Below are positions 17,876-51,690 of a stretch of DNA of 64,000 nucleotides, piece after piece. Below the pieces are notes generated by a model. That model was not told where the DNA came from, made no database searches, and was given only the letters and a program-made list of their open reading frames with translations. Both the position numbers and the translations under genes were made by a program. The DNA is taken from NCBI GenBank assembly GCA_951406725.2, contig OX597822.1, positions 107,074,001 to 107,138,000 on the forward strand, given 5' to 3'. Numbering within the stretch: position 1 is the first letter of the stretch; each line of letters begins with the position of its first letter. Origin of the DNA: Octopus vulgaris (lineage: Eukaryota).

Positions 17876-18477
17876 AGAGAGGACAAACAAGGACAGACAA
17901 ACGGATTAAGTTGATTATATCGACCCCAGTGCGTAACTGGTACTTATTTAATCGACTCCGAAAGAATAAAAGGCAAAGTCGCCCTCGGCGGAATTTGAAC
18001 TGTGAACGTAGCGGCAAACGAAATAGCTATTTCTTTACTACCCACAAACAAGGACAGACAAACGGATTAGGTCGATTATATCGACCCCAGTGCGTAACTG
18101 GTACTTATTTAATCGACTCCGAAAGAATAAAAGGCAAAGTCGCCCTCGGCGGAATTTGAACTGTGAACGTAGCGGCAAACGAAATAGCTATTTCTTTACA
18201 ACCCACAAGGGGCTAAACACAGAGAGGACAAACAAGGACAGACAAACAGATTAAGTCGATTATATCGACCCCAGTGCGTAACTGGTACTTATTTAATCGA
18301 CTCCGAAAGAATGAAAGGCAAAGTCGACCTCGGCGGAATTTGAACTGTGAACGTAGCGGCAAACGAAATAGCTATTTCTTTACTACCCACAAGGGGCTAA
18401 ACACAGAGAGGACAAACAAGGACAGACAAACGGATTAAGTCGATTATATCAACCCCAGTGCGTAACTGGTACTTAAT
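17869..18477 (-). mobile_element. SINE-B 4-unit array
   Basis: Junctions gaaatag|ctatttc at 18026/27, 18187/88 and 18371/72. Confidence 0.93.
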
Positions 18478-25025: not shown

Positions 25026-25275
<250 letters not shown>

Positions 25276-25333
25276 ATATATATGTATAACTTAGAAAGGT
25301 TTTTGGCCAGTATTGGCCCAGGCCATGTCTAAC

Positions 25334-28300
25334 TTAATAGCACCACCTGGCGAAGTCTTTCAGTTCAGGATTTGGGCACCAAGGCCCATTCGAGCAGAGA
25401 GTTATTGTTTGCGGAGACATATCCGGGTGTGGATGGTTTGTCCGGTACTGTTTGAAGGAATTTGTCCAAAGACTTCTTGAATTTTGTGTGGTCAGTTTCT
25501 TTTTTTTGACGTGTCCTGGTGTAATGTTGAAGAGAGCGGGTCCAATTGAGGTGAAATAGTTGTGCCGTATTGTCGTTATGTGATGCGATTTAGATTTTTG
25601 TTGTGGACGGATGGCACGTGGTCCAAGTCTTGGATGCATTTTGAAGGTGATGCCAACATCATTCGGACAGTGCTGATGGAATATTTTCCACATCATACAG
25701 ATAATGTAGCGTTCACGGCGTCGTTGGAGTGAATACAATTTCAGCTTCTCTAGTCTACCCCAGTAGTCAAGGTCTGACATGCCATCTATCTTTTTTGTGA
25801 TTGACCTTTGGGGAGCTTCAATTCTCATAATATTTTGTTTTGTGTAGGGAGACCACAGTGGACAGCAGTATTCAAGGTGGGGTCGGGCAAAAGTGGAGAA
25901 GAGAAGGATAATAGCGTGGGAATCTCTCGACTGGAAGGTTCTGAGAATCCAGGAACACATTCTGCGGGCCATGTCAACTTTGCTGCTTATATGTGTAGCC
26001 CAGCTTATGTTGTTGTCCACTGTTACTCCCAGGTCTCTGATGTTGTTGGATGCCATGAGAATTTCTCCAGAAGGAAGAGAGTATGGGAGTTTCAGAGCGT
26101 CCTCCCTTCCAAAGTGGATCAGTTCGAATTTGTCTTCATTTAGCAACATGTTATTCTTTTCCGCCCATTGGACAACAGCTAGTAGGTCTGACTGAAGGTT
26201 TATTCGGTCATCCACGCCATTGATGACCTTCTGGAGCTTGGAATCATCAGCGAAGGTTCTGATGTTGCTGTGTTTGATGGTGTCAGTAATATCATTTATG
26301 TAGATGATGAAGAGAAGTGGGCCCAACACAGTGCCTTGTGGGACACCACTGCTGACTTTGGCTGGGCTGGATTTGACTCCTTCGACTACAACATGTTGGG
26401 TTCTGTTAGAGAGGAAGCACTTGATCCATTGCAGCAGCTTTCCAGTGACACCAATATTGGACAGCTTTCTCAGAAGGATCTTATGATCAACCCTGTCAAA
26501 GGCCTTGCTGAAATCAAGGTAGATGACATCAGTGTTGGAACCCTCTCCCAAGGCTCTCAAAATGTCATCAAAATGATGCAGTAGCTGCGTCAGGCAATCT
26601 CTCCCATTACGGAATCCATGCTGGTTGGGGTTCAGCATATTATGACTCTCAAGGAAGTGAGTCATACGCGATCTCAGCACCCTCTCAAATACCTTGATGA
26701 TATGAGAGGTGAGTGAGATTGGACGGTAATTCACGGCAAGCGATTTGTTTCCTTTTTTGAAAACTGGGATAACAGACTGGGATAGAAGGTCTTCTGGTAT
26801 ATATCCAGCATCCAATGAGTTCCGCCACAGATTGGCTAGAGGGAGTGCAAGTTGGTTTTGACACATCTTCAAGACACAAGCAGGGAACCTATCGGGACCT
26901 ACTGCTGAATTATGCTTCATTTCCTTTATTGCTGCTAAGACATCAGGAGCGCCAAATGTTATGTCCGATAAAGTGTATTGGGGAGTAACATCACTGATAC
27001 AGCCCAGATCAGTCATATCAGGATTGTTGAAAACAGAGCAATATTGTTTCTGCAATATTTCTCCCATGGTTTTGGCATTGTCTTGAAGAATACCATTTTC
27101 ATCAATCAGAGGGCCAACAGTAGAACCAGTGACTCTGTGTTTTTTTGCAAATGAAAAGAACACTTTGGGATTGAGTTTGATCTTCTCAATGGCCCAGGCC
27201 TCTTCAGCTCTTCGCTGACTATTGATGATAGACATCATGTTGTTTTGGAGTTTATGTTTTTTAATCTCTAGCGACGAGATGGGAGTCAGGTTGGTGTGTT
27301 GCTGTTGACAGTATTTCAGCATGTTGATCTTTTTGTTGATTCTTTTAATTTTCCTTATGAGAGATTTTCTATTTCTAGGGATTCGACACTTAGATTTGTT
27401 TGCAGATCTTAATGGGGTGTGTCTTGCACATATGTTCGTGATGGTGTCTACAAGTGACTGCCAGGACTTTTTGATGTTAGTGGGTGTGTATGTGTGCGTG
27501 AAGGACCAATCGACTTGTGCAAGATCATTATTGATCGCTTCCCAGTTTGCATTGTGGAAATCCATAGTGTCAAATGGATGAACAGGAGGGATGACATTTG
27601 TTTTGCATTTTGGCCAGTGAAATCTCAGATCACAGAGAACCATGTCATGGTCGGAGAGTAGGGTTTTCTCCACTGCAATATTGTGGATAGTATCAGTGTG
27701 ATTGCTGAAAATTAAGTCTAAGACGTTTTTGTGACATCTCGTTGGTTCGAGTACCAGTTGGGACAAGAAGAAGTCATCCATGAAGTCAAGAAGCGATTCC
27801 ACTGCCTCCCTGTCAGGGGTTGAGAGAGAAGAACCTGGCGGCAGACTGTTTGTAGACCAGTCAACCCCGGGAAGGTTGAAATCTCCCATCATTAAAATGT
27901 TGTCAGGTTGACACTGCTGAATGAAACACTTTATGCTGTTGAGGCATTCCTTGAAGCATGGTAGGGGCGTTTGGGGTGGTCTGTAGAGCCCAACTACTGT
28001 TAAGTTGTTGGTTTGACTGAATACAGCGACTGCTTCGCAGTATCCATTCGAAAATATGTTCATGGCTTCTGTTGAGAATGAATCATGGACATAAATGGCA
28101 GTCCCACCCTTTCTTCTGCCAACACGATCAGCACGAATGGTTTTGAAATTTTTAACTTTCACCTCGGCTTCCAAGTGGAGGTCACTAAGATGGGTTTCAG
28201 TGAGGACGAAGAAAGGGATGTGGTTTGGATGGGCCTCGACCCAGTCCTCCAGGAATCTTATCTTCCATTTTTGTGTATTGGTGGAAGGGCTGATGCCTTG

Positions 28301-28384
28301 GGCATTAAGCAGAAATGTTGAGGCGAGAGTGGATGGTTTTAATTGTTTTGGTGATTTGTTTATTTGATTGCTTTTTAATGGCAT
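25334..28384 (-). CDS. LINE ORF2p: APE endonuclease plus reverse transcriptase
   Basis: LTETHL, YRPP, MGDFN and SDH (APE); NYRPISLTS, YLDFSKAFDRVDH, SGVPQGTVLGPLLF and FADD (RT). Confidence 0.97.
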   Translation of the reverse strand: MPLKSNQINKSPKQLKPSTLASTFLLNAQGISPSTNTQKWKIRFLEDWVEAHPNHIPFFVLTETHLSDLHLEAEVKVKNFKTIRADRVGRRKGGTAIYVHDSFSTEAMNIFSNGYCEAVAVFSQTNNLTVVGLYRPPQTPLPCFKECLNSIKCFIQQCQPDNILMMGDFNLPGVDWSTNSLPPGSSLSTPDREAVESLLDFMDDFFLSQLVLEPTRCHKNVLDLIFSNHTDTIHNIAVEKTLLSDHDMVLCDLRFHWPKCKTNVIPPVHPFDTMDFHNANWEAINNDLAQVDWSFTHTYTPTNIKKSWQSLVDTITNICARHTPLRSANKSKCRIPRNRKSLIRKIKRINKKINMLKYCQQQHTNLTPISSLEIKKHKLQNNMMSIINSQRRAEEAWAIEKIKLNPKVFFSFAKKHRVTGSTVGPLIDENGILQDNAKTMGEILQKQYCSVFNNPDMTDLGCISDVTPQYTLSDITFGAPDVLAAIKEMKHNSAVGPDRFPACVLKMCQNQLALPLANLWRNSLDAGYIPEDLLSQSVIPVFKKGNKSLAVNYRPISLTSHIIKVFERVLRSRMTHFLESHNMLNPNQHGFRNGRDCLTQLLHHFDDILRALGEGSNTDVIYLDFSKAFDRVDHKILLRKLSNIGVTGKLLQWIKCFLSNRTQHVVVEGVKSSPAKVSSGVPQGTVLGPLLFIIYINDITDTIKHSNIRTFADDSKLQKVINGVDDRINLQSDLLAVVQWAEKNNMLLNEDKFELIHFGREDALKLPYSLPSGEILMASNNIRDLGVTVDNNISWATHISSKVDMARRMCSWILRTFQSRDSHAIILLFSTFARPHLEYCCPLWSPYTKQNIMRIEAPQRSITKKIDGMSDLDYWGRLEKLKLYSLQRRRERYIICMMWKIFHQHCPNDVGITFKMHPRLGPRAIRPQQKSKSHHITTIRHNYFTSIGPALFNITPGHVKKKKLTTQNSRSLWTNSFKQYRTNHPHPDMSPQTITLCSNGPWCPNPELKDFARWCY

Positions 28385-29315
28385 GTGTAGTGGGGTAATA
28401 GTGGTGGATGGCGGTGGGTGATAGCTCGGATGTTTTTTTCCAGTTCTTTTGCTAGATTCATTATAGCTAAAAAAGAGGAAGAAGAGGTGGTTTCCTGTCT
28501 AGGGAACCGCAGGTGACTGTGGCCGCGGCTATTTTTATGTGAGTGGTTATCTTTAAATGTCCGACGAGTCCCCGGGAGATGGGTAAAGGGGCAATCCCTG
28601 TGCAAACACAATCTGTCTCGCTGGGAATAGCGGCAGATTTGGGGATTCCTTGTTTGAGATATTGGTGGTTGTGGTGATGTTGTATTATGGTGGTTGCTGT
28701 TGTAGTTTGTGGGGATAGAGCGTTTTGTTCCAGGTAAATGGGTGAATTTGCAGTCTCTATCAGTGCACAGTCTATGGCGAAGAGAATATCGGCAAATGAT
28801 GGGGTTTCGAGTGGGTGTGTAGGTGCGTGTATGTGTGTGAGCTGTGAAAGGTGTAGATGATAGTTTGAAGTTTTGGCGACCTTTGTGACCTGTAGGAGGT
28901 AAATTCCTTGAGATAGCATTAGTAGTAGTAGCTGTAGTAGTAGTAGTAGTAGTAGGTAGAAGAGATGTTGACGGTGGTAATGATTGAGGAGGTCGATTCC
29001 AAGACAAAGATGTTTGTCGATATATAGTGGGAGTAGTACTAGTAGTAGTAAGCAGAGGAGATGGTGTTGACAATGATGATGATTGAGCTGCTGGGGCAGT
29101 GAAAGGAAGGGGTGGTGCTTCCTGCTGTGTGACCCTGATAACTGGGGGGTCAATCGTTTCATTTAGCAAATCAGCCATTGTAGATGAATCAAGGAGTGGT
29201 TCATCCTGTTGTTGTTGTTGAGGTTGTTGTTGTTGCCTCTGAGGTTGTTGCTGCTGAAGTTGTTGTTGTTGCTGTAACTGTTGTTGTTGTTGTTGTTGCC
29301 GCTGAGTTTGTTGTT
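28375..29315 (-). CDS. LINE ORF1p with poly-Q and two CCCH zinc fingers (N-terminus truncated)
   Basis: [19 protein letters not shown] and [19 protein letters not shown]; frame stays open upstream of Met 29178 as Q-rich sequence; overlaps ORF2 by 10 bp. Confidence 0.85.
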
Positions 29316-29342
29316 GTTATATATATATATATATTGTTGTTG

Positions 29343-29379
<37 letters not shown>

Positions 29380-29470
29380 GTGTGTATGTATATATATATG
29401 TATATATATATATATATGTGTGTATGTATATATATATGTATATATATATATATATATATATGTGTGTATG

Positions 29471-29515
<45 letters not shown>

Positions 29516-29524
29516 ATGTATATA

Positions 29525-29565
<41 letters not shown>

Positions 29566-29573
<8 letters not shown>

Positions 29574-29904
29574 ATTAGGGCTTAGTAAAATAAATTACTT
29601 TGCCACATACTGAACTTAGTAGAAATAGCAGCCAAAAAAAATTTTTCTTAGCATTTCTACTACTTATAGAAAATTTCTCTCAGATAATGTTTACTCTAGA
29701 CAGGTCACGAAGGTCTGGGGGTAAATACAGAAAAATATCACAAGTACATAGATCGTTTGAGTACGTCAACGTTTCAAGATTAGCCAAATTATTTTACTAA
29801 GCCCTAATTATATAATGTAATATTTTGAATTCGCCTTAAATGGTCCTTTTACATACTGAACACTTGGTGAAATTGATTAATTAATTAATTTTACCCTCAA
29901 TTGT

Positions 29905-31205: not shown

Positions 31206-31878
31206 CTTTTCCAAAAGTTCATTTACATCAATTTTGTATATCATTTTTTTCCCTTTCCGCCAACATATTTTAGGTTTTAACTAACCGAGCCGTTTCGCAA
31301 CACTTAACTTTAGAGATATTGATTTTCATTTGATGTTTCATCTCTTAAAATATTCCATACAAAAATTTACATATTAATCTCCATTGCAAATATACTCGGT
31401 GACCGAATGCCTATACCATATATGCTAAAATCTCATTACTATTCCTCCTTTTTGCCATATTTTGAGTATGCTACTTGAAAAAGCGTTTCTATGTATTCTT
31501 TTTATACCTTCGCTATACCTTTTTCTACCTTTTACAAAAAAAAAAAAAAAAAAAATACAGCAAAATCAGAAATTGAAGAAATAAAACGCAGCATATTCAA
31601 TACTGCTCCGCTTCATAAGCGGCCAATCAGCAGTATCGACCTACAGATTAAAATGGAAAGGTCTATTTAAATTTTAAAGTCACTGTCACTTTTAAAAAAC
31701 AAACAAAAACAAAAAAAAAATCGTGTACATAATCAAGCACGTGATTAAGAACTCTAAATATACACATATATACACACATAATCGCACGCGCGAATATATA
31801 TATGTGTGTCTGTGAGCGTGCGTGTAAATATATATGCATGCATGCATTTCCCACCTCAACACATGTATGTAAATGTAT

Positions 31879-32470
31879 GGCGGCGAGCTGGCAGAATCGT
31901 TTACACGCCGGGTGAAATGCGTAGCCGTCTTTCGTCTGTCGTTACGTTCTGAGTTCAAATTCCGCCGAGGTCGACTTTGCCTTTTATATCCTTTCGGGGT
32001 CGATTAAATAAGTACCAGTTACGCACTGGGGTCGATATAATCGACTTAATCCTTTGTCTGTCCCTGTTTGTCCTCTCTGTGTTTAGCCCCTTGTGGGTAG
32101 TAAAGAAATAGAAATAGGTATTTCGTCTGCCGTTACGTTCCGAGGTCGACTTTACTTTTCATCCTTTTGGGGCCGATAAATTAAGTACCAGTTACGCACT
32201 GGGGTCGATATAATCGACTTAATCCGTTTGTCTGTCCTTGTTTGTCTCCTTTGTGTTTAGCCCCTTGTGGGTAGTAAAGAAATAGGTATTTCGTCTGTCG
32301 CTATGTTCTGAGTTCAAATTCCGCCGAGGTCGACTTTGCCTTTTATATCCTTTCGGGGTCGATTAAATAAGTACCAGTTACGCACTGGGGTCGATATAAT
32401 TGACTTAACCCGTTTGTCTGTCCTTGTTTGCCTCCTTTGTGTTTAGCCCCTTGTGGGTAGTAAAGAAATA
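31879..32470 (+). mobile_element. SINE-B 3-unit array with one TSD
   Basis: Junctions gaaatag|gtatttcgtctg at 32117/18 and 32285/86; TSD tatgtaaatgta flanks the whole array. Confidence 0.93.
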
Positions 32471-39270: not shown

Positions 39271-40675
39271 ATGTCTTTTGAAATTATTCACGAAAGTAGT
39301 GCTCTTGAGGAGAGCAATGTTAAAAAATTTTCTGAGGTAGCCGCAGTGGCTACCGAGAGCATTGACATCGATGTCAACCAGCTCGTCGAGCTATTTAAAA
39401 GAATGCAAGAGGAGGGTGGTGATGTTAAAATATCACTCTCCGCCAGTATCGTGGAGACCGAGAAGCGGACCGTAGTGTTTAAAACTTTCTGTCCATAAAG
39501 CAGAAGGTTCAAACACTTTGAAAAAAGCTCTATCGAGAAATGCCTGTCCCCGATTTGGAAGGACATCGTGTACGTCGCCAGGGGACGGGCATATGGCACT
39601 GTGGATGTCCGCTTCTCGGGGAAGAAATGGCCCGCGGGCATTCTGTGAACCCCCTAAAAACCAAGGAGGTGGTACTTTTTCCAAGCTATAGGGGACGCAG
39701 GACGTCCCGGGTCAGGATTGTAGAAGCCCCGCCGGAAGTAGATCCGGTAGAGGTAGTGGCCGCCCTATTATATAAAAGGGCGGACAAAATAAAAATGCTA
39801 GAAGTAACATGCTCTACCCCTCGATTTTGGCTCGGGTGTAACATTAATATATTAATTCAAGGAACAGCGGAAGACCTGCAGCACCTTCCTGAGAGGGTGC
39901 TCGTGGGCGAGAACGTAGCCCTCAGGGTACAGGTCGAAGGCCGAAAACTCACCTGTTACGCCTGCGGCAAAAGGGCCACATTCGTGTAGACTGTCCAGAC
40001 AAGCAAAAGAAACCGCAGACACCAGGCCCCTCAGATAATAAAAAAGTCCCTACCCTTGCAAACACACCTACCCCTACAAAAGCAAAAAAAATCCCACTCC
40101 TGCTGTTACGGTGCCAACCCCAAAACAGACTGAAGAAAAAACCCAGCCCTCGCACTCACAAACCCCTACACTATTAAAACCTCTCACCCCCCTAAAAACT
40201 GCGGCGCCTATCGAACAAACTATTGCTACCCCAGACGATACCATGGAGGTATCAGAGGGGGGATTTACACCAGTTCGTAAAAGAATTCGTGCAGCATCCC
40301 CGTCCACATCCCCTACAAAAAATAATAAAAACAAAGACACACCACAGACACGAAAAAAAAAATCCCGCTCAACTGGCCCAGAAAAAGAAGACAAAAAAAA
40401 AAAATAAACTCATATTAATTGAATTCGACACACAAGAAAAATACATAAACGATATTGTGGTTCAGCATCAGTCAGCAAGACTGTACAACAAATACAAAGA
40501 TCGAAATAGACACGCGTGGATTGCGGAAACAACGTTCAAACAATTAAAAGACAGACACCCAAACGCCATCCGGCATATCGCGAACTTGCCGGACTATCTG
40601 AAGAAAGAGGAGAAAGAAGGGGCCCACAAACGTGTGGTGAGGTCGGCCCCCACCTCTCCAACGAAATGTAAGTAG
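39271..40675 (+). pseudogene. Tx1 ORF1 (gag-like, CCHC knuckle), frameshifted
   Basis: Consecutive ORF fragments; CYACGK/GHIRVDC knuckle spans a frameshift near 39970; K/P/T-rich C-terminus. Confidence 0.8.
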
Positions 40676-40692
40676 AACTTTTACTTTTTGTA

Positions 40693-43600
40693 ATGGCTTC
40701 GCTTAACCTTGGTTGTTTAAATGTGCGTGGTCTGAGTTCGAAGTGGAAGCAGGCTTGTTTCCTCGACGACCTCAGATCACATGATATACATGTGATGGTT
40801 GCTACAGAGACCAAGCTGGACAGCCTACAAACCTTCTCGCCTCTCCTGAATGGCTACGAGAAAATCATGTCTCCTGGCCAGACCGGATGGCGAGGGGGCG
40901 TAGTGGTACTGATCCGTAAAGACTTGGCTCTACAGACAAGTACAGTCTATGTAGACCCAGAAGGTGGGCTGGTCGTCCTTGATGTGACATACAGCAGTAA
41001 GGCCTTCAGGTTGATCGGACTCTATGCACCTTGTGCTAGAGGTTTCCAAACTGATTTTTATCGGCGCCTAGAGGGCTTTCTCGTAACGTCGAAGACTTTA
41101 GTGATATTAGGGGACTTTAATGCTATCGTTGACGTACACATCGATAGCGTTGGCTCGATCTATAGGAAAGTGAACTCACGTCTCGTGGATCTGCTTAAGC
41201 GGTTTCAGCTGGCAGATCGTTACAGACTTGACCATCCGAACGTCCCAGAGTGGACCTGGATGAGTGGCGACGGAAGGTTCAAGTCTTATCTAGACAGGAT
41301 AGTGATAAGAACTAGAGATAAGTCTAGTTTTAGTTGTCCACAGCTCGTCCAGGTGCCCTATACTGACCATAGAATGGTCACGTGTAGACTGGACATAGAT
41401 AGCACACTTAAGATAGGAACCGGCTACTGGAAGCTGAACAAGTCTATTTTGACACGCGAGGCATACCGTAGCCGGATTAAGGTGTTAGTGCAGAGGGCGT
41501 TAACCGGAGCCGTGGTTAATAACCGGTGGTGGTTCACCCTCAAAAGAGCCATTCGATTCGAGTCCATTAGATTTAGTAAACAACTAAGACTAGATAGGGC
41601 TAGAATAGAAGGGCAACTAGTTAAGAACTTAGAGGAGACGTTGAGGTTGGGCTCTGCATCTCACATTTTAGCGGCGAGAACGGCATTAGACCGTCACCTC
41701 AAAACCAAACATGAGGGATGTAGAGTCCGGGCTAAAGTACGAGCATTGGGCCGTGAGGGAATTAATGTTGCCGGATGGGCCCGTACGATAGAAACACAGC
41801 GTGGAAACGATGCCACAATTGGGTCTCTTGTTGATGAAAACGTATGCACGATCAAGAAGCGGGACGAGATGTGAGGCACTTCACAAGCACTTCGCCGAGT
41901 TGTTCGGGAGGTGCGGGACGCTGGATCATGGTGAGGCCCTTAGGGACTTCCTGTCTGGTGGCCCGCGCCTCTCGACACGAGAGGCTGAGTGCTGTGAGGG
42001 GCCAATCACAGCCGAGGAAGTAATCGAGGTGTTGGGCAAGTGCCAGACTTGTTCGGGCACCTGCTGGCTAGCGTCTACGCCAACTGGCGGCAGAATGGGA
42101 GAATTCCCAAGTCTGCGAACCGGGGGGCGGTGACGTTGATCAGGAAGGACCCGAACAAGGGGGACGAGATAGGGAACTTCAGGCCCATAACTCTGTTAAA
42201 CACAGAGTTAAAGATTCTGGCCAAGGTGCTAGCAAAAAGGTTGGCGCGGGTCGTGGACAAACTTGTCGGGGAAGCGCAAACGTGCGCTATCCCCGGCAGA
42301 ACGATCCACGACAATCTCCACCTTATACGCTACTCCTTAGAGAGGGTGGGGAAGCTTTCTGGCGCAGGGGGAGCACTGGTACATTTAGACCAGTCCAAAG
42401 CATTTGATAGGGTCGACCATCGGTACCTGGCGGCGGTCCTCGGAGAGGCTGGCCTAGGCCCGACCTTTCGAGGTTGGATCGCTGCTTTGTATAGCGACAT
42501 CGAGTCTGTAGTCAAGGTGAACGGTTCCTTTTCGAAGCCGTTCAGGATCGAGCGTTCAGTTCGTCAAGGGTGTCCCCTGTCCTCGCTCCTATACGTATTG
42601 GCTCTTGAGCCTTTGCTGCGGAAGTTGGAGGCACTAGGGGGCGCGCCGCATGATCTATGGTGTGGAAGAGGAGCTACGGCGTATGCGGATGACACCTCCA
42701 TCATCGTGGCAGACGAAGGCTAGCTTCCAGTGGTGGAAGAGGCCATCAAAAGCTACGAGGCGGTGGCAGGAGCAAAGGTTGACAAGGACAAGTCGGTCGG
42801 TTTGCAACTCGGCACCTGGAGAGGCAAGCCGATGCCGTCCAATAACGTCGTAGGGCGTTGGACGGAAGGTCCTGTTAAGCTGCTCGGAGCCTGGTTCGGG
42901 TCAGACCTCCAGATTGAGAAAAATTGGAGTGAGGTGGCCAACAAGGTGACCGCTCTAACCCAGACCTGGTCTGGGCGGGCGTTATCCCTGCTAGGGAAGG
43001 CGGAGGTGGTGCAGATGTTTATAGCATCAGTAATCACCTACCGTCTGACCGTGGTGCCTTGCCTCGGTTTGTGGCTGAACAAGTTGGAGAGAATCCTTTT
43101 CCGATTTTTGTGGAAAGGAGGAAAGCCACTTGTAAAGCGCTCTGTCTGCTGCCAGAAACCGCTAAAGGGTGGGCTAGGGATGCCTTGGCTGAGGATGCGA
43201 AAACTCGCGTTAAGGTTGAGGCACCTCTGGCTTTACCTGGATGGAGAGCAGGTGTGGTCGCCGCACGTCCGGTTCTACCTTCCCCAGTTAACATCCCTAA
43301 CGGACATCGGTGCATGGATCAAGCGGAGACCTAAACTGAGTGAATGGCATTTGGAGTGCCGTCAGGCGCTCCAGCTACTATCTCGGGTGGGCAACGCCGG
43401 CAACAGGAGTTCCACCACGGAATTCTATAGCGGGTTAGTGGAGATTAAGTCCGAAGACGCCTTGGGGGAGACCCTGGGCTACGATGAAAATCAGTTGGTC
43501 AACCTGTTCCGGAGGACGTTCGGGCCGGGGTATCTGGATAATTACCAGAAATCCCTGGCCTGGCAGTGTTTCCGTGCGGCTTTACCTGTTCGCGACAAGC

Positions 43601-44034
43601 TGTCAAGGCACGGTAGTGCCGTCTCGCCGACATGCCCGCGATGTGAGCAGGATAGGGAGACCGTCTTGCACGCATTCGTGGAGTGTCCGGAGTTATCGGG
43701 ACTCATAGCTTTTGTTGAACAACTGTTGTCAGTGATGGGAAGAGTACAGCTATCAGCTGAGTCTATCATCGAGATTGTGCCGCCCCCTTTCCTTATCAGG
43801 GAAAGAAAGGCTTGTTTTTTCTGTGTAGTAGCCATACTGAAAGAAACAGTATGGAAGACGCGTACGAAAGGTATAGTGACAGGCACCTTTGTCTCCGACC
43901 AGGGGTTGATTAACTATTTTAGTTACCACCTCAGTAGCAAAATCAGGCTGGAGAAGAGGTGTCTGTCACGAGATATGTTTGTCAAAAGATTGAAGCCTGT
44001 GGCATACAAGATGGGTATGTTTGGCACCAGGTAA
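40693..44034 (+). pseudogene. Tx1 ORF2 (APE, RT and C-terminal zinc knuckle), disrupted
   Basis: LNVRGL, GDFN, YTDH, GYWKLN; FRPITLLN, DQSKAFDRV, RQGCPLS, YADD; CPRC..ETVLHAFVEC; breaks at ~41870, ~42040 and a stop at 42721. Confidence 0.95.
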
Positions 44035-46401: not shown

Positions 46402-46454
46402 TACACATGCATACACACATATTGCACAAAACTGAAAAGCGCGCACAGACACAC

Positions 46455-49195: not shown

Positions 49196-49778
49196 TTTCT
49201 TTACTACCTACAAGGGGCTAAACAAGGAAAGACAAAGGTATTAAGTCGATTACATCGACCCCAATGCGTAACTGGTACTTAATTTATCAACCCCGAAAGG
49301 ATGAAAGGCAAAGTCGACCTCGGCGGAATTTGAACTCAGAACGTAACGACAGATGAAATAGCTGTTTCTTTACTACCCACAAGGGGCTAAACACTGAGAG
49401 GACAAACAAGGACAGACAAACGGATTAAGTCGATTATATCAACCCAAGTGCGTAACTGGTACTTATCTAATCGACCCCGAAAGGATGAAAGGCAAAGTCG
49501 ACCTTGGCGAAATTTGAACTCAGAACGTGGCTGCAGACGAAATACCTATTTCTTTATTACCCACAAGGGGCTAAACACAGAGGGGACAAACAAGGACAGA
49601 CATAGGTATTAAGTCGATTATATCGAACCCCAGTGCGTAACTGGTACTTAATTTAATCGACCCCGAAAGGATGACAGGCAAAGTCGACCTTGGCGGAATT
49701 TGAACTCACAATGTAACGCAGACGAAATACCGTAAAGCATTTCGCCCGGCGCGCTAACGTTTCTGCCAGCTCGCCGCC
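49196..49778 (-). mobile_element. SINE-B 3-unit array with TSD
   Basis: Junctions at 49361/62 and 49545/46; TSD tatcagtgctRtata at 49179-49193 and 49781-49795. Confidence 0.93.
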
Positions 49779-51369: not shown

Positions 51370-51399
51370 AATGGGAGAGTAGTCACATGACTTCTCAAA

Positions 51400-51690
51400 A
51401 GACAGAAGCCAGGCTGTGGCAGCCAATGTAGCCCTGTCAAAGGAAGCAATAACCCCGAGTGGAGTTCCTCAGGGTCATGTCTTGGGGCCACTGCTGTTTG
51501 TGGTAGCCCTTTCGGACATGCCATCAGTTACAAAGACAGCTACACTTACTAACTACGTCGACGGTATAACGGCAGTGTAAGCAGTGAAGAACCTATCGAT
51601 GCTACCTTTTTACGAAAAGAACTAGACGTCTTTAATAAATAGTTTGAAGAAAATAACACACAGTTTTATGCAGGTTAATTCCAAGACTTA
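51400..51690 (+). pseudogene. Old CR1-group RT fragment
   Basis: SGVPQGHVLGPLLFVVALSDMP...NYVD, homologous to SGVPQGTVLGPLLF...FADD. Confidence 0.8.

Follow-up and report, generated by a model that had tools for sequence, protein, structure and literature searches.

Of all parts of a LINE, ORF1 is understood least, and the types of it that have been published are built on RRM, CCHC, PHD or esterase modules. Where, then, does an ORF1 with CCCH zinc fingers come from, and what may these fingers do? The question is raised by a 64-kb stretch of Octopus vulgaris DNA (contig OX597822.1, positions 107,074,001 to 107,138,000 of the forward strand; hereafter the window, in whose coordinates all positions are given). 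The original prediction, made from the letters of this DNA, saw in it a LINE ORF1 with two CCCH fingers, possibly captured from a host RNA-binding protein of the TTP/makorin type. The explanation that we favor as a whole, and with fair confidence, is a different one: the ORF1 of a young CR1-type LINE would have inherited its finger from the third finger of a widespread ORF1-like family, doubled it, and would act through RNA binding.

The LINE copy and its reading frames

The LINE copy occupies 25289..29317 on the minus strand (4029 nt) and is flanked by (TA)n arrays at both ends. Its ORF2 (25334..28384, minus strand, in a frame open from 28498) encodes an APE endonuclease followed by a reverse transcriptase (RT), with Pfam matches to Exo_endo_phos_2 (5e-14) and RVT_1 (2e-30) and with the catalytic motifs present. 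The first ATG of ORF2, at 28384, lies within the last codons of ORF1, the two frames overlapping by 10 nt. Neither RNase H nor a C-terminal zinc finger was matched in ORF2 by Pfam, which did find zf-RVT in the other LINE of the window; an ORF2 devoid of both domains is a feature of CR1-group LINEs. The short 3' UTR (25289..25333, minus strand) terminates in a single TTCTAAGTTA unit, which continues into (TA)n without a poly(A). Such an end in a short tandem repeat is shared with the CR1 group, an octamer microsatellite being found at the 3' end of amniote CR1 (PMC4316615). The order of APE and RT in ORF2 and this 3' end agree with the predicted ORF1 of a CR1-type LINE. The putative assignment is to the CR1 group at large (Jockey superfamily), without distinction between the CR1 clade proper and L2, Daphne, Crack or Zenon; it rests on the domains and the 3' end, and the RT tree described below covers unnamed homologs only. 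Membership in Zenon is unlikely, because Zenon is described as having poly(A) and no ORF1 (PMC13343379).

A second copy of the same family, of which only the 3' end is present (5205..5390, minus strand), carries two TTCTAAGTTA units, is also flanked by TA runs at both ends, and matches the main copy over 177 nt at 98.3% identity. The open ORF2 and this near-identical second copy point to a young LINE family. Each of the four points at which the two copies meet flanking DNA falls within a TA run or next to one, as compared with the 9.7% of the window that is located no more than 10 nt from such a run. The LINE may target TA arrays; two copies are too few to prove it, and the arrays can grow after insertion. 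Inside them a target-site duplication is unreadable. The array at the 5' junction (29318..29573) contains a 10-nt island of CAA repeats (29334-29343), 16 nt from the LINE 5' end, which may be the record of a template jump in reverse transcription.

Several other elements were noticed in the window. A MITE-like element of about 245 nt with 26-nt terminal inverted repeats (29569-29815) adjoins the 5' TA array and separates the LINE 5' junction from the sequence further upstream. Just past the 3' end of the LINE, a 64-nt tRNA-like SINE head (25145-25208, seen by eye) lies between two TA arrays. One SINE-like unit, presumably akin to octopus tRNA-derived SINEs, forms tandem arrays with a 157-184-nt period at 5402-5770, 7499-7807, 17883-18475 and 49220-49731, and, by eye, a further one at about 31870-32470; the second LINE copy abuts the TA-rich end of one of these arrays. 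An unrelated LINE on the plus strand (39522-44034), which we take to be L1/Tx1-like from its domain order, has APE, RT and zf-RVT in broken frames, and its upstream frame ends in the start of a C-x2-C knuckle. On the same strand, an RT fragment of yet another LINE family (51392-51562) is 39% identical to the window ORF2.

The ORF1 frame (28375..29316, minus strand) encodes 313 aa from stop to stop and 267 aa when counted from its first ATG, Met47 (29176..29178). The two predicted fingers were recovered letter for letter in this frame: repeat A (ORF1 170-200, 28717..28809) and repeat B (ORF1 223-253, 28558..28650) both have the spacing C-x8-C-x4-C-x3-H, followed by LPGTKR and LPGTRR, respectively, with their cores at 28794-28738 and 28635-28579 of the minus strand. 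The fingers are separated by 34 residues, are led in by R-N-P-x-I and recur with a period of 53 residues. Ahead of them lies a low-complexity linker (28810..29175, minus strand), in which neither a PHD nor fingers 1-2 of the family discussed below were detected; the T/P/S-rich setting described originally was evident, since residues 38-174 consist of 23% T, 15% P and 12% S. Behind them follows an amphipathic helix starting S-F-L (ORF1 279-300, 28417..28482, minus strand), common to the same family.

Low-complexity surroundings raise the suspicion that the motif is a chance product, or that a recent tandem duplication doubled it neutrally. We regard this as next to impossible. When ORF1 was shuffled 100,000 times, one motif appeared in 12 shuffles and two motifs in none, and the family has hundreds of members. 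As for a recent neutral duplication, repeats A and B agree at only 55 of 93 nucleotides, as against 23 of 31 residues, and 16 of the 23 identical residues use different codons (pS 1.02, pN 0.22; Fisher p 2e-11). Since synonymous sites are saturated while the protein identity is retained, the duplication is old and both repeats have been kept under purifying selection. Elsewhere in the six frames of the whole window the strict motif gave a single match, at 46453, which was rejected as an artefact of a (TG)n/(TA)n microsatellite.

Pfam detected Nab2-type CCCH similarity in the window ORF1 below the curated cut-offs (PF14608 and PF22683, 17.8 bits vs 27 and 10 vs 25.8, respectively), and PF00642 itself did not match. 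A DUF5714 match to the window, also below the cut-off, was dismissed. A word-indexed search with ORF1 168-313 produced 26 candidates, none of them significant. In the ESM Atlas, the window part gave leads only below 0.9, most of them with zf-CCCH, and P0128 gave only unnamed clusters.

Descent of the fingers

When ORF1 163-313 was compared by phmmer with 1.84 billion representatives, 28 matches were obtained. Most are partial sequences or complete proteins (420-510 aa) in which three CCCH fingers are linked, and it is the last finger that matches the window repeat. At E<=0.001, a cluster profile that combined 14 clusters with both window repeats and one close relative picked out 285 clusters from 2858 candidates, and the family was sampled as 138 proteins that include the best 120 of these 285 matches. 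Finger 3 is present in 135 of the 138 and fingers 2 and 3 in 124. The x8/x4/x3 spacing is kept in 134 of 135 third fingers, in which the four ligands and, within the tail, Gly and Thr are invariant (100%) and the final Arg is conserved to 97%. In 103 of 134 relatives a helix with the xFL start comes after finger 3, and the tail after the helix is rich in Pro (19%) and Gln (17%; 94 proteins). A PHD-like pattern was found in 87 of the 94 family proteins of at least 380 aa. For 92 full-length members, Pfam at E<=0.05 reported Nab2-type CCCH in 31, Tudor-knot in 16, zf-CCCH in 14 and PHD in 9. The architecture of the family reads: an optional Tudor-knot/PWWP domain, a helical domain, a PHD-like finger, a linker, three CCCH fingers, a second linker, the amphipathic helix and a P/Q tail. 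The extra N-terminal domain ahead of the PHD was seen as Tudor-knot in 16, MBT in 11 and PWWP in 1 of the 92 (e.g., P0125, P0143 and P0257), and these members combine two chromatin-reader-like domains within one ORF1-like protein.

The window finger is almost certainly a homolog of finger 3 of these proteins, judging from sequence comparison. A profile of 14 relatives scored 38 bits on repeat A and 30 bits on repeat B, values that are partly circular, as its 14 rows had been picked from matches to the window query; it covered the window ORF1 only with positions 57-85 of 86, twice, which corresponds to finger 3 twice. The stretch ORF1 142-152, likened by eye to a finger-2 loop, is not reached by the profile and was discarded. 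No PHD or finger 1/2 remnant was found across the 64-kb window (best other match E 0.24), nor was a displaced N-terminal half detected beyond the TA array in six frames. The His of the H-P-x-x-C link, with HP present in 130 of 135 relatives, is Asn in both window repeats, as the loss of finger 2 would lead one to expect. The window ORF1 and the PHD and three-CCCH family have in common finger 3 and the GT(K/R)R tail behind it, the S/H-F-L helix, a tail that is short and rich in H/P, and a related ORF2; the window ORF1 differs in the lack of the PHD and fingers 1-2, the doubled finger 3, Asn for His and the N-terminal poly-Q. Because fingers 1 and 2 are missing directly before finger 3, it appears to be a derived variant and not a typical family member.

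What is peculiar to the window ORF1 is that finger 3 is doubled while the PHD and fingers 1-2 are lacking. Two intact copies of finger 3 were found in none of the 138 family proteins, a sample (best 120 of 285 profile matches) that favors three-finger proteins and so does not show the doubled form to be rare. Traces of the same doubling seem to be present in two close relatives, and it is then not private to the window copy. There are two fingers in P0127, both decayed, with a linker like that of the window ORF1. P0124 has one intact finger, with 23 of 29 residues identical to repeat A, and the same helix, and the stretch upstream can encode the start of a finger in a shifted frame (9 of 9 positions; 1 of 300 shuffles reached 9).

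The family is tied to LINE ORF2 by two gene models, which constitute good but indirect evidence. P0009 (EukProt sb/3460780) has a PHD-like region, finger 1 and finger 2 followed by full APE-RT, and in P0146 fingers 2-3 and the helix run into APE sequence (E 6e-6). ORF2 sequence in the same model was found in 1 of the 138 family proteins, plus P0009, so that the statement that all family proteins are ORF1 would be an extrapolation. Many of the ORF1 and ORF2 search matches come from 4-5.5 kb contigs, the size of one element. An RT tree was built from 116 of 121 rows plus an outgroup, without named reference clades. In this tree, a protein of Argonauta hians, the nearest named relative, comes out as the sister of the window ORF2 (support 0.997; 60% identical), and a seven-member clade joins the window ORF2 with P0009 (support 0.957), a node inside the P0009 clade having a support of 0.16. 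The tree shows the window ORF2 to be kin to an ORF2 that sits behind PHD and CCCH modules.

The fingers of the host proteins Nab2/ZC3H14, CPSF30, MBNL and TTP/TIS11 resemble those of the window in the order of CCCH ligands and in the aromatic residue before His. Sequence matches between them are weak, all below the curated or significance thresholds, and the fit to CPSF30 was 1.2 A over 23 columns (E 7.7). The window fingers are unlike them in the x8/x4/x3 spacing, the conserved Ser three residues after Cys1, the GT(K/R)R tail and the 53-residue period. The tandem fingers of TTP/TIS11 are joined by an 18-residue linker and have a YKTEL-type lead-in; both are absent from the window ORF1, with its longer inter-finger stretch and its own lead-in. 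Equally absent is the TTP/TIS11 spacing C-x8-C-x5-C-x3-H (PF00642 description), both window repeats having x4 in place of x5.

It is at this point that the predicted capture of a TTP/makorin-type host finger gave way: the finger corresponds to the last of a three-finger cluster common to a large ORF1-like family, as does the helix behind it. A recent capture of such a tandem domain by the window LINE is very improbable and, on the comparisons made here, largely refuted. Apart from the wrong spacing and the missing PF00642 match, the best matches to the window repeat are three-finger proteins with 19 of 29 residues identical and the helix in common, and the relatives include ctenophore gene models. 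Among the listed profile matches, the only organism names were those of two Mnemiopsis leidyi gene models, ACHWQZ_G003269 and G016814, whose presence points to an old lineage. What speaks for capture is that module swapping in ORF1 has been described (PMC4120745) and that two proteins without the ORF1 architecture, P0140 and P0145, score weakly on the profile (20-25 bits), which makes an ancient host origin conceivable. In these two unnamed proteins x8/x4/x3 CCCH fingers alternate with CCHC knuckles, and they are possible host-side relatives of finger 3. Since the spacing, the GT(K/R)R tail and the downstream helix are common to the family, the finger looks inherited and common in its lineage, rather than freshly captured from a host.

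The poly-Q tract and the start of ORF1

The poly-Q upstream of Met47 was found as originally quoted, in frame with Met47 at 29178 and reaching the TA array. This (CAA/CAG)n tract (29206..29316, minus strand), with 30 Gln in 37 codons, is immediately preceded by an in-frame TAA, which arises where the element meets the array, and the element contains no ATG upstream of the tract. There are 23 CAA and 7 CAG codons; wherever a codon differs from CAA by a single base it reads CAG (seven cases), never CGA, the Arg codons of the tract are CGG and AGG, and the Leu codons TTA and CTT. In the Gln frame 8 different codons stand for 5 residues, compared with 10 codons for 8 residues and 10 for 7 in the remaining two frames, so the variation is synonymous in the Gln frame only, and there is no frameshift over 111 nt. 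This pattern favors a coding history of the tract. The tract appears to be built of a repeated P/L-Q-Q/R-Qn unit, given which the seven CAG codons perhaps represent two to four independent events. Poly-Q is not a family trait: a run of at least six Q was found in 1 of 138 relatives, near the C-terminus, and the Q/P-rich region of relatives is C-terminal. The originally suggested support of RNP condensation by the poly-Q would be speculative, and the tract may not be translated at all.

The original claim that the true N-terminus is missing is a matter of interpretation, as Met47 could be the start; what was observed is a frame that reaches the TA junction with no upstream ATG. We lean towards a window copy that is 5'-truncated inside a coding poly-Q linker, in which case the PHD could lie in the missing part. 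Less probable, albeit a serious contender, is a nearly full-length copy whose ORF1p starts at Met47. The CAA tract would then be a 5' UTR or a former poly-Q that is no longer translated, and the minimal ORF1p would comprise two finger-3 modules and the helix, without a chromatin reader and without poly-Q, and would in other respects act as in the favored explanation. Met47, with A at -3 and G at +4, stands in a context favorable by the start-codon consensus, and the missing upstream ATG, the lack of any PHD or finger 1/2 remnant in the window and the rarity of Q runs in relatives also fit this start. Moreover, the 174 aa ahead of the fingers exceed any PHD-to-finger-1 linker in relatives (34-137 aa, n=91), and highly repetitive 5' regions have been described in apparently complete elements (PMC4120745). 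Against it stand the synonymous variation confined to the Gln frame over a tract free of frameshifts, the lack of a non-repetitive 5' UTR, and the 5' truncation usual for CR1 copies (PMC4316615), seen in the second copy here as well.

Predicted function and place among ORF1 types

AlphaFold2 modelled the repeat B finger with its tail at a pLDDT of 90-95 (ORF1 225-254) and the region after finger 3 as a helix. A family model from 92 sequences was of high confidence for the helical domain at the N-terminus, the PHD-like region, the cluster of fingers and the helix 378-405, and of low confidence for the linkers. Foldseek gave no match at E<=0.001 with either model, a fold search with the window model returned generic helices only, and VIA-align with the family model gave only Z < 6.3. 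Residues 11-100 of the family model m219b82f2bcc8 bear a weak likeness to SAP/LEM/Rho-N helix-extension-helix domains (Z 3.6-4.7; a lead only), the values being 4.7 for the Rho N-terminus (rmsd 1.7 A, 45 aligned), 4.6 for CARP2, 4.0 for DEK and 3.7 for both Ku70 SAP and emerin LEM. The trimer prediction for the C-terminal helix (score 0.03, "no answer") speaks neither way.

Of the PDB sequences matched by the cluster profile at E<=10, all eight belong to CCCH proteins that bind RNA (Nab2 with E 0.032, MBNL1/2 and CPSF30), and each window repeat has 7-8 K/R residues versus 2 D/E. APE-type LINEs usually have their target choice set by the endonuclease. In SART1, the zinc knuckles package the element RNA (PMC4120745). 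An RNA-binding role of the fingers is likely, because Nab2, MBNL and CPSF30 are the nearest solved structures, with weak E-values, and because of the role of the SART1 knuckles. It is rather unlikely that the fingers instead bind AT-rich target DNA, or a protein partner such as ORF2p or some factor of the host, and help to guide insertion to (TA)n. Both LINE copies do sit in TA arrays, the GT(K/R)R tail is nearly invariant and basic, and in relatives the cluster lies beside chromatin-reader-like domains; the solved CCCH proteins nearest to it all bind RNA, however, and the usual part of the endonuclease in target choice speaks against it as well.

With RNA as the preferred target, the following course of events may be proposed. 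The window ORF1 would descend from a widespread ORF1 type through the loss of fingers 1-2 and a long past duplication of finger 3 including the GT(K/R)R tail. Both of the resulting basic zinc modules would bind the single-stranded RNA of the element, as CCHC knuckles or RRMs do in other ORF1 proteins, and the C-terminal helix would let ORF1p multimerise into an RNP. ORF2p would be made by re-initiation at the ATG overlapping the end of ORF1 and would prime reverse transcription in (TA)n arrays, possibly aided by the tail ending in TTA.

The CR1-lineage LINEs with ORF1 of type III (PHD) or V (Metcalfe and Casane 2014, PMC4120745) are alike in their two-ORF APE-RT organization and in a modular, shuffled ORF1. 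The PHD-like finger of type III recurs in the relatives of the window ORF1 and is absent from the window copy, whose 5' end is perhaps missing. Type I ORF1p (RRM and three CCHC knuckles; SART1, Jockey and CR1 subgroup 3) is the likely functional analogue, also with small basic zinc modules, and in SART1 the end of ORF1 overlaps the start of ORF2 as in the window LINE (PMC3894237). The window LINE is unlike SART1 and type I in having CCCH for CCHC, no RRM, and an overlap of 10 nt versus the UAAUG of SART1. In the window ORF1, Pfam found no RRM or CCHC at E<=10, no C-x2-C-x4-H-x4-C was present, and there was no match to PHD, to the esterase of type IV or to Transposase_22 (coiled coil, RRM and CTD) of type II; the latter was also absent among the 25 of 41 families shown for the 92 relatives.

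The originally noted oddity of CCCH fingers in a LINE ORF1 persisted in the literature. "CCCH" occurs 0 times in the main text of PMC4120745, PMC13343379 and PMC5203782 and in the passages of PMC10294476, PMC9115989 and PMC11203168, and Table 1 of PMC4120745, with 18 CR1 subgroups and 448 elements, lists no CCCH finger. A survey of titles and abstract starts, with Repbase and Dfam, the likeliest places for an earlier mention, outside its scope, retrieved no paper on CCCH fingers in LINE ORF1. The window ORF1 appears to lie outside the published ORF1 types examined and yet to come from a large LINE-linked family.

A bolder proposal, which we put forward tentatively and consider possible more than probable, is that the PHD and three-CCCH protein represents a sixth, hitherto undescribed type of LINE ORF1p, ranging from ctenophores to cephalopods, in which CCCH replaces RRM/CCHC. 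An octopod sub-lineage would have rebuilt it in minimal form by dropping the reader domains and fingers 1-2, doubling finger 3, moving the Q-rich region from the C- to the N-terminus and inserting into (TA)n. The picture of how LINEs move is unchanged by the window ORF1. If the proposal is true, a CCCH-based type with hundreds of clusters would be an independent solution to RNA packaging, built on the finger class that hosts deploy against retroelements, as exemplified by ZAP. Many "hypothetical" CCCH gene models of marine invertebrates would then be transposon genes that inflate host CCCH counts, and the two-finger form with its open ORF2 offers a compact natural construct for the function of finger 3.
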